A DNA stretch of 64,000 nt, from positions 32,001 through 96,000 of the IMG/VR virus record IMGVR_UViG_3300036761_003779; one strand, written 5' to 3'. Source of the stretch: a virus. The position numbers and the translations under genes are program-made. Below are positions 5,167 through 34,269 of this stretch, in pieces. The notes beneath the pieces are model-generated. The model was not told where the DNA came from, ran no database searches, and saw nothing but the letters and a program-made list of their open reading frames with translations. Position 1 is the stretch's first letter, and every line of letters starts with the position of its first letter.

Positions 5167-7941
5167 TCAGGACAGTCGGCGGAACGGGAGGGCGCGGATC
5201 CGCGCCTGGAAGAACCGCCCCTTGCTCCCCGCCGCGAGTAGCTCCGGGAGGAGCGGCCCGGCGCCCGGGTAGACGTACTCGGCGCCCTTCCTGAACCGGA
5301 CGAGGAGGTCCTCCCCGTCCCGGCGGACCGCCGCGAGGTTCTCGCTCTCGACCGCGACCCAGCCGCCCGCCGCCGACGCCGGCCCGGGCTCAGCCTCCAG
5401 CCCCCGGAGCAGCTCCGGCGTCAGCTCGACCCGCTCCCCGGCCCGCTCCGAGAACCAGGCCCGGTGCGGCGCCTGGACCGCGTTCCGGATGGCCCGGGCG
5501 TGCGACCGGAGCGGCCGGACGAGGCGGTCCCAGAAGTAGAAGTACACGGCGTCGACCTTCCCCTCGTGCCGACGCTTGAGGCGCCCGACCTGCTGCGTGA
5601 ACCGCCCCGGGTTTGCCGCCGCCGGCGTCATGCCGAAGCCGCGGTCGAGCCGCTTCACGTCCATCCCCTCGTCCGCCACCGTCGTCCCGACCGCCACGCG
5701 GAGGGTCCCGTCCTCGAGCCCCTCCGCCGTCCGGTCCTGCTCCTTCGCGTCCCGCCCGCCCATGAGGCGCCCGGCGTGGACGCCCCGCCGCTTCAGCCAC
5801 GCCTGGATCTCGAGGCACATCTCCCGGCGGTCCGCGAGGAGGAGGCACGTCCGCCCGGCGGCGATCTCCGGGAGGAGGTACTCGAGGACCCGCGCGCGCC
5901 GGCGCTCGTCCCGCGTGGCCGCGTCGAGCATCTCCGCGTAGGTGTTCAGCGGCCCCGCAAAGTGGGTCTCCTTCGCCCAGCGGCGGACCGCCGCCGTCCC
6001 CGTCTCCCGCTCCAGCCGCTCGAAGCCGGCCGCCTCCAGCTCCGCCTCCCGGTTCAGGTCGAAGGCGAAGTCCGTCGGGACCACGACCACGTCCACGGGG
6101 ACGATGCGGTTGAAGCGGTCCAGGTCCTCGTCCCGGATCTCGAAGAGGACCCGCGGCCCGCGCGCCGTCCCGCCGCCCCGCTTCGGGACGTACTCGACCC
6201 CGAAGGCGTCGAAGAACAGCGGCTCCTTCTTGTCCCGCCGGTGCGGCGTGGCGGTGGCCGCCAGCCGGTTCCGAGCCGGGAATAAACTGATACATTCCGA
6301 GAACGTAGACGCGGCGCAATGGTGCGCCTCGTCAAGTATCAGCGTCCCCCAGCGGTTCACCCAGCCCGGGTCCGCCTTGACCTTGTTCAGGACGGAGCGG
6401 ATCATCCCGACGATCAGGTCCCCGTCCCGCTTCTCCCGCCCGTAGAGGACACCGATCCGCCGCTCCGGGACGGAGAACCGCGCCGCCGCCTTCCCCACCC
6501 ACTGCCGGAGGATCCGCTCCGTGTGGCAGAGCACCAGCGTCCGCTCCCCGAGGTCCGAGATGGCCTTGAGCAGGATCTCCGTCTTCCCGGAGTTGTGATG
6601 CCAGAGACCTCCGGCCCAGTAGTTCCCAAAGACCGGGACGTTGAAGTCAAAGTACGGCTCCGCCGGGACCGCCCGCGCGGAGAGGACCCGGACGAACTCC
6701 ACTGGACCCGGGTTATAGGTCCCTGTTAAGATGGACCCACCTAGAGGTGACTCGGATGAGAGAACGCCAGATGTGGGACAAAGCGCGCCGTCAGCGAGCC
6801 GCGGAGCTGTACCGCTCCGGACTCCTCCTAGAGGAGGTGGCGTCCGCCCTTGGGACGAGTCGGAACCGCGTCCGGGAGGCGCTCCGAACGCTTGGGGTGG
6901 AGGTTCGCCCGACTGCGTTCCAGAAGGGCGGGCTGACCGGTCGGAGGAACCCGAATTGGAAGAGCGATCGCCGGGTGGATGAGGATGGATACGTCCTCCT
7001 TCGGGTCCCGGGACACCCGGACGCAAAGCCGGGGGGATGGGTACTCGAGCACCGCCTGGTGATGGAGGGTCTTCTTGGGCGCCGCCTGACCGCGGAGGAA
7101 GTGGTCCATCACCGAAACGGAGATCGAGGAGACAACCGTCCGGAGAACCTCCAGCCGTTCGACTCCAATGGAGCGCATCTTGCGCATGAGCTTCGAGGGA
7201 GGACGCCGAACTGGACGGAAGGAGGACGCCAACGGACCCTGGACGGCCTGGAGCGGTGGCGTGGAGAGCTTCATAGATCTCACGGGCGGAGAGGAAATGG
7301 TGGCCGTCCCAGAAGAGGTGTCCCGGCCTGACGCGGAAGGTCCCCACCTCCGTCTCGATCTCCACGAGCTGCGCCGCCTCGAACATCACCGGCGGGAGCG
7401 CCGCGGAGACCACGGGACCGTTCGGTCCCATTGCCCAGACGTGGAAGGGCGCGCCCTCCGCCCAGCGCTGGAGGGCGGTTACATCGCTCCCGTCCGTTGG
7501 GTCTCGAATAACGGTAGATCCGTGGATACAAGCGCACGGGCCGACGAGGATGCCGGCGCGCCGGGCGACGAGCGCCTTGGCCGCGCTCCGCTGGTCCGGC
7601 CCCAGCTCCCACTCCGGCGGGCTCCGGTAGACGAAGGGGAGCGGCCCGGTCCCGCGGACCGTCCGGTCCACGGGCTCGATCTCCGCGCCGACCCGCGCCA
7701 GGAGCCGCTGGAGGACGACCCAGCCGCCGCGCGGGAGGAGGAGGTCCTCCCCCTCGTCCAGCACCAGGCTGAGCTTCCGCGGGGTCTCCCCCGTCCAGAA
7801 GCCCATGTTCGACTTCTTCCAGAACTCCGGGTTGTCCACCTCGAACGCCTCCCGGACCTCCCGGAGGGAGAGCCCGGCGTCCTTGGCCGCGCGCTTGCTC
7901 AGGCGGAGGTGGGCGTCGACGACGACCTTCAGCTTGACCAT
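5167..7941 (-). CDS. SF2 DExH helicase (UvsW/XPB-like) with intein and C-terminal KTSC-like domain
   Basis: Q motif LGPDQ; Walker A GPCA|SGKT; LILDEAHH; TATPHRRD; DEGMDV; QQVGRLKR; C-terminal VESENLAAV...LLVRFRKGAEYVY...AGSKGRFF. Confidence 0.9.
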   Translation of the reverse strand: MVKLKVVVDAHLRLSKRAAKDAGLSLREVREAFEVDNPEFWKKSNMGFWTGETPRKLSLVLDEGEDLLLPRGGWVVLQRLLARVGAEIEPVDRTVRGTGPLPFVYRSPPEWELGPDQRSAAKALVARRAGILVGPCACIHGSTVIRDPTDGSDVTALQRWAEGAPFHVWAMGPNGPVVSAALPPVMFEAAQLVEIETEVGTFRVRPGHLFWDGHHFLSAREIYEALHATAPGRPGSVGVLLPSSSASSLEAHAQDALHWSRTAGGSPDGCLLDLRFGDGPLPPRSGGAQEDPPSPGGARVPIPPALRPGVPGPEGGRIHPHPPGDRSSNSGSSDRSARPSGTQSGEPPPQAFGAPPGRGSDSSQGRTPPPLGGVRSGTAPRLADGALCPTSGVLSSESPLGGSILTGTYNPGPVEFVRVLSARAVPAEPYFDFNVPVFGNYWAGGLWHHNSGKTEILLKAISDLGERTLVLCHTERILRQWVGKAAARFSVPERRIGVLYGREKRDGDLIVGMIRSVLNKVKADPGWVNRWGTLILDEAHHCAASTFSECISLFPARNRLAATATPHRRDKKEPLFFDAFGVEYVPKRGGGTARGPRVLFEIRDEDLDRFNRIVPVDVVVVPTDFAFDLNREAELEAAGFERLERETGTAAVRRWAKETHFAGPLNTYAEMLDAATRDERRRARVLEYLLPEIAAGRTCLLLADRREMCLEIQAWLKRRGVHAGRLMGGRDAKEQDRTAEGLEDGTLRVAVGTTVADEGMDVKRLDRGFGMTPAAANPGRFTQQVGRLKRRHEGKVDAVYFYFWDRLVRPLRSHARAIRNAVQAPHRAWFSERAGERVELTPELLRGLEAEPGPASAAGGWVAVESENLAAVRRDGEDLLVRFRKGAEYVYPGAGPLLPELLAAGSKGRFFQARIRALPFRRLS
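6703..6732 (+). promoter_or_regulatory. Candidate sigma70-type promoter of the antisense HNH gene
   Basis: TGGACC-N18-TAAGAT with extended -10 TGn; the same motif occurs at 61568-61595 and 63801-63828. Confidence 0.5.
6756..7331 (+). CDS. HNH homing endonuclease with N-terminal HTH, nested antisense within the intein
   Basis: HTH ELYRSGLLLEEVASALGTSRNRVREALR; GRRNPNWK; GYVLLRVPGHP; EHRLVMEGLLGRRL...EVVHHRNGDRGDNRPENL (HNH_3/I-HmuI-like); GAGGT 7 nt before ATG 6756 (alternative GTG 6747). Confidence 0.9.
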   Translation: MRERQMWDKARRQRAAELYRSGLLLEEVASALGTSRNRVREALRTLGVEVRPTAFQKGGLTGRRNPNWKSDRRVDEDGYVLLRVPGHPDAKPGGWVLEHRLVMEGLLGRRLTAEEVVHHRNGDRGDNRPENLQPFDSNGAHLAHELRGRTPNWTEGGRQRTLDGLERWRGELHRSHGRRGNGGRPRRGVPA

Positions 7942-7972: not shown

Positions 7973-8452
7973 TCAGAACTTCTTGGCCTCGACCTGCTCC
8001 AGGGAGGCCGGCGGGGGCTCCAGCTTCGGGAGCCGCCGCGCCGCGGGCTTCGCCGCCGGCGGGAGCCGCCGGACCGGCGCCTCGAGCCGCTCCCGCATTG
8101 CCGGCGTTATGACGCGCCGCGCGGTCGCCAGCTGGAGGACCGCCTTGGTCAGCTCCGCCTGCCCGCGCGCCACCTCGTCCCGGAGCTTCTCCGTCCGCGC
8201 CTCGCAGGCCCGCGCCACGGCGTCCAGGTCCGCCCGGCTCGCCCGGGCCCACTCCTGGAGCTGGGTCACCTGCTGCGCGGACTCCGAGTTGACGGCCCGG
8301 ACCGTGTCCCGGGAGGCCGCCTGGCGGCCCTGGATGGCCGCGAAGGCGCCCGGGAGCGCGGCCAGGAGGTAGGCCAGGACGTAGGCCAGCGGACGTCCCC
8401 AGCGCTGTCCCGCGCGCTGTAGCGCGGTGGTCTCCTCGGAGGGCTCAGGCAT
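7973..8452 (-). CDS. Membrane-anchored coiled-coil protein
   Basis: Hydrophobic LAYVLAYLLAALPGAFAAI followed by a heptad-rich helix; overlaps the upstream gene. Confidence 0.6.
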   Translation of the reverse strand: MPEPSEETTALQRAGQRWGRPLAYVLAYLLAALPGAFAAIQGRQAASRDTVRAVNSESAQQVTQLQEWARASRADLDAVARACEARTEKLRDEVARGQAELTKAVLQLATARRVITPAMRERLEAPVRRLPPAAKPAARRLPKLEPPPASLEQVEAKKF

Positions 8453-8846
8453 CCTTCTTCTCCGTTGACGCCAGCAGCGCCGGCGTGATGGCCGGGTAGG
8501 CTTCCCCGGTCCGCTTCCTCCGGAGGTCCGAGACCGCCTCCCGGAGGGTCCCCGCCAGGGTCCGGACCCCCTCGGAGGCCCGGCCCGCCAGGTCCGCGGC
8601 TGCCATGGCCCGGACGTGCCCCCGCCTCGACCGGAGCCCGCGCTGCGCGTTGAGCGCCGCCGCGAGCTGCGCCTCCGTGATCATCCCCCGCCGGACCATC
8701 AGCTCCCCCAGGAGTTCGTCCTGCGACATCCGCTTCTGCTCCTCGAGGACCGCCCGGAGGTCCTCCCGCGTCACCGCCTCCATCTTGACCAGGATCATCC
8801 CGATGGAGAAGACCTCCGTGTTGTCCCGCGGGTCCTGCTTACTCAC
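8445..8846 (-). CDS. Stand-alone MshEN-like (c-di-GMP-binding fold) protein
   Basis: Two tandem 24-aa motifs, SIGMILVKMEAVTREDLRAVLEEQ and LLGELMVRRGMITEAQLAAALNAQ, versus the consensus RLGxxLLxxGLLxxxxLxxxLxxQ. Confidence 0.7.
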   Translation of the reverse strand: MSKQDPRDNTEVFSIGMILVKMEAVTREDLRAVLEEQKRMSQDELLGELMVRRGMITEAQLAAALNAQRGLRSRRGHVRAMAAADLAGRASEGVRTLAGTLREAVSDLRRKRTGEAYPAITPALLASTEKKDA

Positions 8847-9064
8847 TTGAAGCTCCTCCGGAGTTCCTCCAGCTCCTTCAGCGTGTTGGTCATCGTTCCG
8901 TGGACCTCCGCGCTCTGTTTGACCTGCGCCGTCGCCAGCTCGTAGAGCTTGTCCGAGAGCTGAACGGACCGCCGCCAGAGCGTGGTAACCGCGAGGAGGA
9001 GGGCAACGCAGAGGATGCCCCAGGGGGCACCGGACTTGAGCAGACTCGAGAAGAGTGCATCCAA
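8843..9064 (-). CDS. Small single-TM protein, holin-like (BhlA/UviB-like architecture)
   Basis: GAPWGILCVALLLAVTTLW followed by a charged coiled coil; 73 aa. Confidence 0.5.
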   Translation of the reverse strand: MDALFSSLLKSGAPWGILCVALLLAVTTLWRRSVQLSDKLYELATAQVKQSAEVHGTMTNTLKELEELRRSFK

Positions 9065-9190: not shown

Positions 9191-9391
9191 CTAGGAATTG
9201 AGCCTGAACGCTTTGACCGCCCTGGCCCTCAGTTCGGCGATGCAGTTGACGCAGAGGGTCGGGGCGGGGGGCGGTCCGGTCCGAACGCAGGCGTGGCACC
9301 CTTCCTTACCGCACTCGCAGACCCGCTTCTCCAGGGCGGACTCGCTCTGGGTTTTGCAGTTTCCGCACTTGTTGTCAGCCCAATTTGGCAT
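9191..9391 (-). CDS. Small Cys-rich zinc-finger-like protein
   Basis: CGNC, CEC, CHAC and CVNC; AAAGGA RBS. Confidence 0.55.
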   Translation of the reverse strand: MPNWADNKCGNCKTQSESALEKRVCECGKEGCHACVRTGPPPAPTLCVNCIAELRARAVKAFRLNS

Positions 9392-33447: not shown

Positions 33448-34269
33448 TTACAGGAACTCCCCGCCGGCGGTGTCCGAGAACACCGTGACGTAGCGGTCCC
33501 GGCCCCGGCGGTCGAAGAGCGCGCGCCGGACCTCCTCCGCCTTCTCGTAGCCGGACCCGCTCCGGAAGGCGTGGAACTCCGGCTGGACCGGGAGGGTCAG
33601 GAGGTGCTCCTCCGGGTAGACGTGAACCGGGTCCCGCGGCCGGAGGTCCGCCAGGAGCATCCCGGGCGTCCGCGGGTTCAGCTGCCGGAGGAGGACGCCC
33701 AGGAGCGGGTTCCCGTACTCGTCCTGGGCCAGCGCCTCGTAGGTGTCCCCGCGCTTGGCCCGCCGGATCCGCGTGAACTTCTCCGGGACGGAGGGGTCCG
33801 TGACCTTCCACTGGACCTCCTCGTACCGCATCAGCGTGATGGAGAGCGTGGCCCCGCGGAAGGTGCCGTCGTCCCGGATCTCGTCGTAGGTCACCCCGCC
33901 GATGCTCTTGACGAGGCAGTCCATCTGGAGGGTCTCGAGCCCGCCCCAGGCGAAGCAGCAGACCGGCGGCCGCTTCAGGTCCGAGTTCCGGCGGACCAGG
34001 TTCTCGAGCCGGAGGAGCCGCTCCTCCACCGAGTCCGTGGAGTCCGTCGCCCAGAGCTTGGCCTGGAAGCTGATCTCCTCCAGCTCCCCGGAGATCCACT
34101 GCAGGATGGGGTAGTCGCGGTTCACGGACTTCCCGACCGCGATGTCCGCGGCGACCGTCTTGGAGACGGACTGCGGGATGAACTGGCCGACGATGTCCTC
34201 CTTCCGGTCGAGGTCCACGATCAGCCAGAGCTTCTTGCTGGGCCCGGAGGCCCCGATACCGGCGCTCAT
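33448..34269 (-). CDS. Tail tube initiator (gpU/CIS-tube-like plus LysM-like domain)
   Basis: QFIPQSVS...LQWISG...RPPVCCFAWG; KRGDTYEALAQDEYGNP...N LysM-like; follows the tape measure gene. Confidence 0.8.
   Translation of the reverse strand: MSAGIGASGPSKKLWLIVDLDRKEDIVGQFIPQSVSKTVAADIAVGKSVNRDYPILQWISGELEEISFQAKLWATDSTDSVEERLLRLENLVRRNSDLKRPPVCCFAWGGLETLQMDCLVKSIGGVTYDEIRDDGTFRGATLSITLMRYEEVQWKVTDPSVPEKFTRIRRAKRGDTYEALAQDEYGNPLLGVLLRQLNPRTPGMLLADLRPRDPVHVYPEEHLLTLPVQPEFHAFRSGSGYEKAEEVRRALFDRRGRDRYVTVFSDTAGGEFL

Follow-up and report, generated by a model that had tools for sequence, protein, structure and literature searches.

A Phage Protein Family Resembling MshEN_N and Its Conserved Single-Pass Membrane Partner

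We describe a phage gene for a stand-alone soluble protein whose sequence similarity to the MshEN_N domain lies far beyond chance. The protein belongs to a large phage family, so far unnamed, that derives from MshEN_N, and its gene is translationally coupled to an upstream gene encoding a small single-pass membrane protein. The two genes form a conserved module, and we tentatively favor a reading in which the soluble protein would serve as a regulatory subunit of its membrane partner, most plausibly in holin control or lysis timing.

MshEN is one of the commonest c-di-GMP receptor modules of bacteria. Its motif is RLGxx(L/V/I)(L/V/I)xxG(L/V/I)(L/V/I)xxxxLxxxLxxQ, and in each motif the Arg that occupies position 1 makes a stacking contact with guanine. 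A literature search found no described phage-encoded MshEN protein.

Source of the Sequence

The window analyzed in this study is a stretch of 64,000 nucleotides (bases 32001-96000) from an IMG/VR virus record of 105,878 bp, which CheckV rated 100% complete. The GC content of the genome is 69.5%, almost all genes are on the minus strand, and no tyrosine integrase was found in the genome. One gene product matched PF19266, the tube protein of contractile injection systems (E 1.4e-6), and the phage therefore probably has a contractile tail. The features discussed below are listed in Table 1.

The overlaps of the MshEN-like gene with the genes on both sides, which an earlier note on this DNA had described, are correct. 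The stop codon of the upstream partner gene overlaps the start of the MshEN-like gene within GTGA (4 nt), and the stop codon of the MshEN-like gene overlaps the start of the downstream gene within ATGCCTGA (8 nt). One strong hydrophobic segment was present in each neighbor (KD19 1.87 upstream and 2.03 downstream) and none in the MshEN-like protein. No lipobox was found near the cassette.

Table 1. Coordinates of the features discussed in the text. Positions refer to the window unless another sequence is named.
Feature	Sequence	Coordinates	Strand	Description
MshEN-like gene	window	8445..8846	-	133-aa soluble MshEN_N-like protein; GTG start, TGA stop; GC3 0.95 (ORF list)
Motif I	window	8736..8807	-	residues 14-37; S14 for Arg, E23 for second Gly; G16, hydrophobic positions and Q37 kept
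Motif II	window	8643..8714	-	residues 45-68; L45 for Arg; G47, G54 and Q68 kept
Long C-terminal helix	window	8508..8621	-	residues 76-113; family-specific; small residues A80, A82, A84 and A87 conserved
TGxxYPA(V/I)T motif	window	8484..8510	-	residues 113-121; T113 in 55, G114 in 65, P118 in 69 and A119 in 57 of 95 sequences
Upstream partner gene	window	8843..9064	-	73-aa single-pass membrane protein; predicted N-out/C-in; charged helical C-terminal tail
Downstream gene	window	7973..8452	-	159 aa; one TM (residues 22-40, KD19 2.03); long helical Pro-rich C-terminal part
Sub-threshold Amidase_2 match	genome	6356-6628	-	within a 375-aa gene; ~34 kb from the pair, ~25.4 kb before the window start
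Match to PF19266	window	33448-34269	-	contractile injection system tube protein
Cys-rich gene	window	9191-9391	-	66 aa, zinc-ribbon-like
SF2 helicase gene	window	5167-7941	-	924 aa, phrog_16
HNH-like ORF	window	6747-7331	+	within the extra stretch of the helicase
Helicase homologue	L002	9931-11550		539 aa
HExxH gene	L002	8805-9422	+	205 aa, one TM
Patatin-like phospholipase gene	L006	4912-5748	+	immediately upstream of the pair
Three membrane-protein genes	L008	4299-5647	+	just upstream of the pair
Three membrane-protein genes	L002	6152-7629		just upstream of the pair
Three membrane-protein genes	L007	1733-3081		just upstream of the pair

Similarity to MshEN_N Domains

HMM and profile searches bore out the claim that the window encodes a stand-alone phage MshEN-like protein. 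The NCBIfam model NF053729 (c-di-GMP_motif, MshE-related) matched residues 15-68 with an E-value of 2.8e-18 and 65.4 bits (cut-off 38), and the cut-off was exceeded in four of the five phage genomes with the pair. When the PDB was searched with phmmer, the N-domains of Thermus PilF and Geobacter PilB were returned at E 1e-6 to 1e-5, together with MshE. A family profile of 83 relatives matched PilF (2e-23), PilB (4e-11), the PilF GSPII-B domain (4e-8), and MshE (2e-7) in the PDB and nothing else; the PDB profile matches stopped at about residue 69. A Pfam scan of the protein gave nothing above threshold, the only sub-threshold match being DUF4388, and a PHROGs search gave no match.

Relatives were collected by searching 1.84 billion representatives exhaustively with an HMM, which yielded 1144 matches at E <= 1e-3. 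Among the best 150 of these 1144 matches, approximately 95 were proteins of 100-150 aa, most of which aligned over nearly their full length, and the others were multi-repeat bacterial proteins. The relatives from these best 150 matches, at least about 95 in number, are clusters at 50% identity. All ten that were looked up were unnamed metagenomic proteins, and the clusters obtained from the ESM Atlas, which belonged to Myxococcota, viruses, and Planctomycetota, were likewise all unnamed. A word-based search gave three close relatives with 63-75% identity. A single-protein query of viral contigs found nothing, and two narrow alignments recovered one related contig only. Two pattern-limited scans of 185,579 species genomes found no copy of the gene, which is weak evidence against prophage copies.

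The phage protein was compared with the MshEN domains of known structure. The MshEN_N domain of Vibrio cholerae MshE (5HTL; Wang et al. 2016, PMC5013675) likewise has two tandem 24-residue motifs, which form four short helices as predicted for the phage protein, and, like the phage family, it has Gly3, the hydrophobic residues, and a final Gln in both motifs. The two differ in several respects. The phage protein has no position-1 Arg in either motif, and its pocket entrance is acidic whereas that of MshE is basic. The linker between the motifs comprises 7 residues in the phage protein and 5 in MshE, and where MshEN_C would follow, the phage protein has a long helix with a TGxxYPA(V/I)T tail. 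In addition, the protein is phage-encoded, from a gene coupled to a membrane-protein gene. Among solved structures, the best sequence matches were Geobacter PilB (5TSG/6OLJ/5ZFR) and Thermus thermophilus PilF (6F8L, 8PDK). The 7-residue linker is common to the phage protein and Geobacter PilB, giving a gapless alignment; unlike PilB and PilF, the phage protein has no ATPase and corresponds to the N-subdomain only.

The C-terminal alpha/beta subdomain, MshEN_C, is absent. Residues 72-133 were predicted to be all-helical, and no PDB or Pfam match was obtained in this part. The conserved sequence L-R-S precedes the long helix (R72 in 88 of 95 sequences), and A80 within the helix is kept in 91 of 95. 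Together with A82, A84, and A87, it makes up an Ala-rich face. An AF2 model based on 83 sequences (pLDDT 89.7) showed short helices at residues 15-21, 27-39, 42-52, and 58-71, followed beyond the head by a 38-residue helix at 76-113 and a last helix at 122-131. A preceding model, for which only 4 sequences were used, had a low pLDDT of 68.5. Foldseek searches with both whole models returned nothing at E <= 0.001, with MshE (5htl_B) listed at E 6.1. In the wide and second-look runs of VIA-align with the whole model, in which the long helix dominates, MshE and PilF were unlisted.

Residues of the Putative Binding Pocket

Motif I starts with S-I-G and motif II with L-L-G, and both finish in Gln. 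The deviations from the motif that had been noticed earlier are real: Arg is replaced by S14 in motif I and by L45 in motif II, and the second Gly of motif I is replaced by E23. In the family profile of 95 sequences, position 1 was Ser in 68, Thr in 12, and Arg in none for motif I, and Leu in 54, Met in 12, and Arg in 12 for motif II. Gly3 was present in 92 sequences in motif I and 93 in motif II (97%), and Gln24 in 79 (83%) and 92 (97%), respectively. Gly10 was found in 67 sequences in motif I and in 74 in motif II; the motif I residue is E23 in the window, Arg or Lys in the closest relatives, and Gly in 67/95 of the wider family. The three close relatives from the word-based search kept the Ser and Leu at position 1, and one close relative has Arg instead of the motif I Gln.

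The charge around the pocket also differs from that of bacterial proteins. In the family, the net charge of the five-residue stretch up to and including position 1 averages -1.0, against +0.9 in the multi-domain bacterial matches of the same profile (299 motif instances), in which Arg or Lys dominates position 1. MshEN itself has a basic patch at the pocket entrance. The head keeps the pocket glycines, hydrophobic positions, and glutamines, both stacking arginines are gone, and the entrance is acidic.

Known proteins allow these changes to be weighed. XpsE and PilF GSPII-A, which do not bind c-di-GMP, have lost Gly3 and Gln24. PilF GSPII-A has Ser for a motif Arg, as does the phage protein, but only the phage protein keeps both Gln. 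The family-wide retention of Gly3 and Gln24, which are lost in the known non-binding GSPII domains, supports the reading of the pair as a regulatory module.

Whether the ligand would be c-di-GMP is another matter. We regard canonical c-di-GMP binding by this head as doubtful, because both Arg have been lost family-wide, the pocket entrance is acidic, and Ser-for-Arg substitution in PilF led to loss of binding. It is unlikely, in our estimate, that the protein is a canonical receptor or sponge whose head binds c-di-GMP at sub-micromolar to micromolar concentrations and through which the phage senses or depletes the host messenger. The NF053729 score above the cut-off of a curated c-di-GMP motif would fit such a protein, as would the conservation of Gly3, the hydrophobic positions, and Gln24. 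Isolated MshEN_N (residues 1-62) binds c-di-GMP with a KD of 0.35 uM. In MshE, changes of Arg9, Asp12, and Gln32 cost at most about fivefold, MshEN binding being mainly hydrophobic and through backbone amides. However, Arg is absent from motif I in 95/95 sequences and from motif II in 83/95, and in engineered PilF 9-65 the return of Ser for the motif II Arg abolished binding. The acidic entrance is opposite in charge to that of the bacterial matches and of MshEN, the clade of the window has also lost the second Gly of motif I, and the Arg of one close relative replaces the motif I Gln. Finally, none of the five phage genomes with the pair contains GGDEF or EAL genes.

The Gene Pair in Other Phages

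In scans of IMG/VR, seven further viral contigs were found to carry the family, with lengths of 25-198 kb and a GC content of 44-65%; individual contigs are denoted by L numbers. A homologous 73-85-aa one-TM gene lay directly upstream in 7/7 of these contigs, the copy in L006 being truncated (46 aa). The overlap of the two genes was exactly 4 nt in the window, L002, L004, L005, L007, and L008, of which L007 and L008 are near-identical. At least seven further pairs of partner and MshEN-like proteins were recognized, both members of which came from contigs of equal size. The partner family comprises at least 116 clusters, and each phage genome has one MshEN-type gene.

The downstream gene behaved differently. 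Homologues of this TM coiled-coil gene were found only in L002, L007, and L008, beside the helicase, and in L002 two inserted genes part it from the pair. In L004-L006 and L009, the next downstream gene is instead a conserved soluble gene of ~140-240 aa with no known family. The 159-aa gene is clade-specific and lies outside the conserved pair. Since only the upstream membrane gene is conserved with the MshEN-like gene, the conserved unit consists of two genes, not three. The earlier note had placed the MshEN-like gene between two membrane genes, which is true of the window but holds across phages only for the upstream 73-aa gene, and no three-gene cassette is conserved in related phages.

No fusion of partner and MshEN-like protein was found among longer proteins, although this is weak evidence. 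A complex prediction with the MshEN-like protein and partner residues 30-73, carried out without controls, gave a score of 0.01, from which no verdict on binding follows in either direction.

In the window, L005, and L009, the pair has tail or tail-fiber genes beside it, with PHROG support in L005 and L009, and it is positioned at the end of, or within, the tail-fiber block. Family scans of the flanking genes in the related loci gave almost nothing beyond the tail-fiber matches and a patatin match in L006. In L006, a relative of 44% GC, this patatin-like phospholipase gene (PF01734, E 6.8e-27) directly precedes the pair.

Several other genes were observed around the pair. The window has a 66-aa Cys-rich protein, zinc-ribbon-like and without a family match, encoded between a tail protein gene and the pair, and L002, L007, and L008 have a Cys-rich gene of 96-136 aa in the equivalent place. 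The two genes inserted in L002, the closest related phage, between its MshEN-like and TM coiled-coil genes encode a 205-aa protein with an HExxH motif and one TM and an 82-aa coiled-coil protein. Three more membrane-protein genes are located just upstream of the pair in L008, L002, and L007. They encode a protein of 208 aa (signal-like segment plus TM), a 120-aa TM coiled coil, and a protein of 153 aa that starts with a signal-like stretch and has its TM at the C-terminus. This trio gave no family matches in L002, L007, and L008; a lysis or envelope module is possible.

The SF2 helicase of the window (phrog_16) has 924 aa compared with 539 aa in its L002 homologue. The extra ~385 aa interrupt the P-loop (GPCA / C...HN / SGKTE) in an intein-like manner, and an HNH-like ORF is present on the opposite strand within this stretch.

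A Possible Role in Lysis

The hydrophobic segment of the 73-aa partner spans residues 8-26. There is no basic residue before it and three follow in the C-terminal flank, so an N-out/C-in orientation is predicted by the positive-inside rule. The helical tail contains both basic and acidic residues. When 60 partner relatives were searched, phrog_2429 ("involved in bacteriocin production or immunity") was matched weakly by 11 (best E 3.7e-4); this label goes with one-TM holins of the BhlA/UviB type. Pfam Holin_BhlA was matched by 1/60 (E 0.088), and the 73-aa protein of the window itself had no PHROGs match at E <= 0.01.

No endolysin gene adjoining the pair was found, and Phage_lysozyme, SLT, and DPBB_1 had no match in the genome. 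The sole peptidoglycan-hydrolase-like signal in the genome was a sub-threshold match to Amidase_2 (E 3e-5, 20.8 bits). The description of the partner as holin-like, made in the earlier note, is in keeping with its size, single TM, charged C-terminal tail, and weak but recurrent PHROG match, whereas the missing endolysin nearby and the single, poor Holin_BhlA match speak against it. In other phages, the soluble downstream gene of L004-L006 and L009 and the nearby tail-fiber genes of L005 and L009 argue that no lysis cassette is present there. The tail-fiber block, in or at the end of which the pair lies, is a frequent place for lysis genes. As the partner is shaped like a one-TM holin and some of its relatives weakly match phrog_2429, but neither an endolysin nor a lipobox is adjacent, the lysis reading for the pair is plausible but unproven.

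If the two genes act as the regulatory module that we prefer, the first would give rise to a single-pass inner-membrane protein, predicted N-out, from which a charged helical tail would extend into the cytoplasm. The second, translated in coupling with the first through the 4-nt overlap, would provide the soluble cytoplasmic half. This half is predicted to consist of the MshEN_N-homologous head, the family-specific long helix, and the TGxxYPA(V/I)T tail, and it would act at the inner membrane face, with or on the small membrane protein. Its most plausible job would be to control the holin-like membrane protein and hence the timing of lysis.

Comparable arrangements exist in other phages. RIII of T4 is a cytoplasmic antiholin, and LydB of P1 is encoded behind the holin LydA. 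In these systems, as may be the case here, a small soluble protein is encoded with, or acts from the cytoplasm on, a small membrane lysis protein. The comparison serves as a working analogy only, as the membrane partner is a putative holin.

A bolder form of the lysis reading, which we rate as a long shot, assigns a ligand as well. The Arg-less MshEN pocket of this widespread phage clade, many members of which have genomes of ~100 kb, would read a host second messenger or a defense cyclic nucleotide at the inner membrane and gate a holin-type event through the one-TM partner. If true, this would amount to nucleotide-controlled lysis timing in phages.

Alternative Functions

The pair could also be directed at a pilus or secretion motor, an explanation that we consider rather unlikely. 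The protein would mimic the N-terminal MshEN/GSPII module of PilB-type ATPases and, held at the membrane by its partner, titrate a platform or cofactor that binds PilB (PilM, PilZ/FimX type). Type IV pilus assembly would thereby be blocked, and the infected cell or the progeny would be shielded from pilus-dependent adsorption. The closest solved relatives of the protein are indeed the N-domains of PilB and PilF, PilF reportedly contacts the PilM platform through its N-terminal GSPII half, and loss of Arg would do no harm to a decoy. However, a pure decoy would leave unexplained why Gly3 and Gln24, both of which touch the ligand in MshEN, are nearly invariant, and the occurrence of the family in phages of 44-69% GC would require a very generic target. 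Receptor-blocking genes lie beside tail-fiber genes in other phages, such as llp of T5 and cor of T1/phi80, and the position of the pair beside tail-fiber genes in the window, L005, and L009 would be in keeping with this. Phage proteins that disable PilB are established as well, namely Tip, Aqs1, and Zip (review PMC11656802). These are small proteins whose target is the extension motor of type IV pili, and they offer a precedent and a possible analogy. Nevertheless, they have not been reported as MshEN-like, and they are described as binding PilB and come from temperate Pseudomonas phages, whereas the phage of the window has no integrase, so exclusion of the prophage type is not expected.

An adaptor that binds no ligand appears improbable. 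The pair would take part in morphogenesis or envelope remodeling tied to the tail-fiber genes, with the head as a helical scaffold and no relation to lysis. The PHROG-supported tail-fiber genes near the pair in L005 and L009 would agree with such a role, as would the conserved soluble gene that follows the pair in L004-L006 and L009. A one-TM protein and a cytoplasmic protein are, however, unlikely virion parts, and conservation of the ligand-contact Gly and Gln would have no explanation.

It seems very improbable that the Ser/Thr and Leu/Met changes re-tuned the pocket for another cyclic (oligo)nucleotide, for example a defense signal, with the protein as its sponge or sensor: the replacements are conserved and non-random (Ser/Thr in 84% for motif I and Leu/Met in 70% for motif II, with the rest kept), MshEN binds cGAMP weakly, and phage sponges for defense nucleotides are an established class with Tad1, Tad2, and Acb2 as precedents, but an acidic entrance is unfavorable for any anionic nucleotide and strict coupling to a membrane protein is atypical of known sponges.

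Conclusions

The proteins described here represent a large unnamed phage family in which the binding motif is altered in a consistent and unusual manner and the membrane partner is fixed. Should the pair bind a nucleotide, these phages would read host signaling at the membrane and perhaps time lysis by it. If the protein is a decoy, it would represent a new way of disabling pilus or secretion motors. In both cases, the family would serve as an experiment of nature on which residues MshEN requires to bind its ligand.
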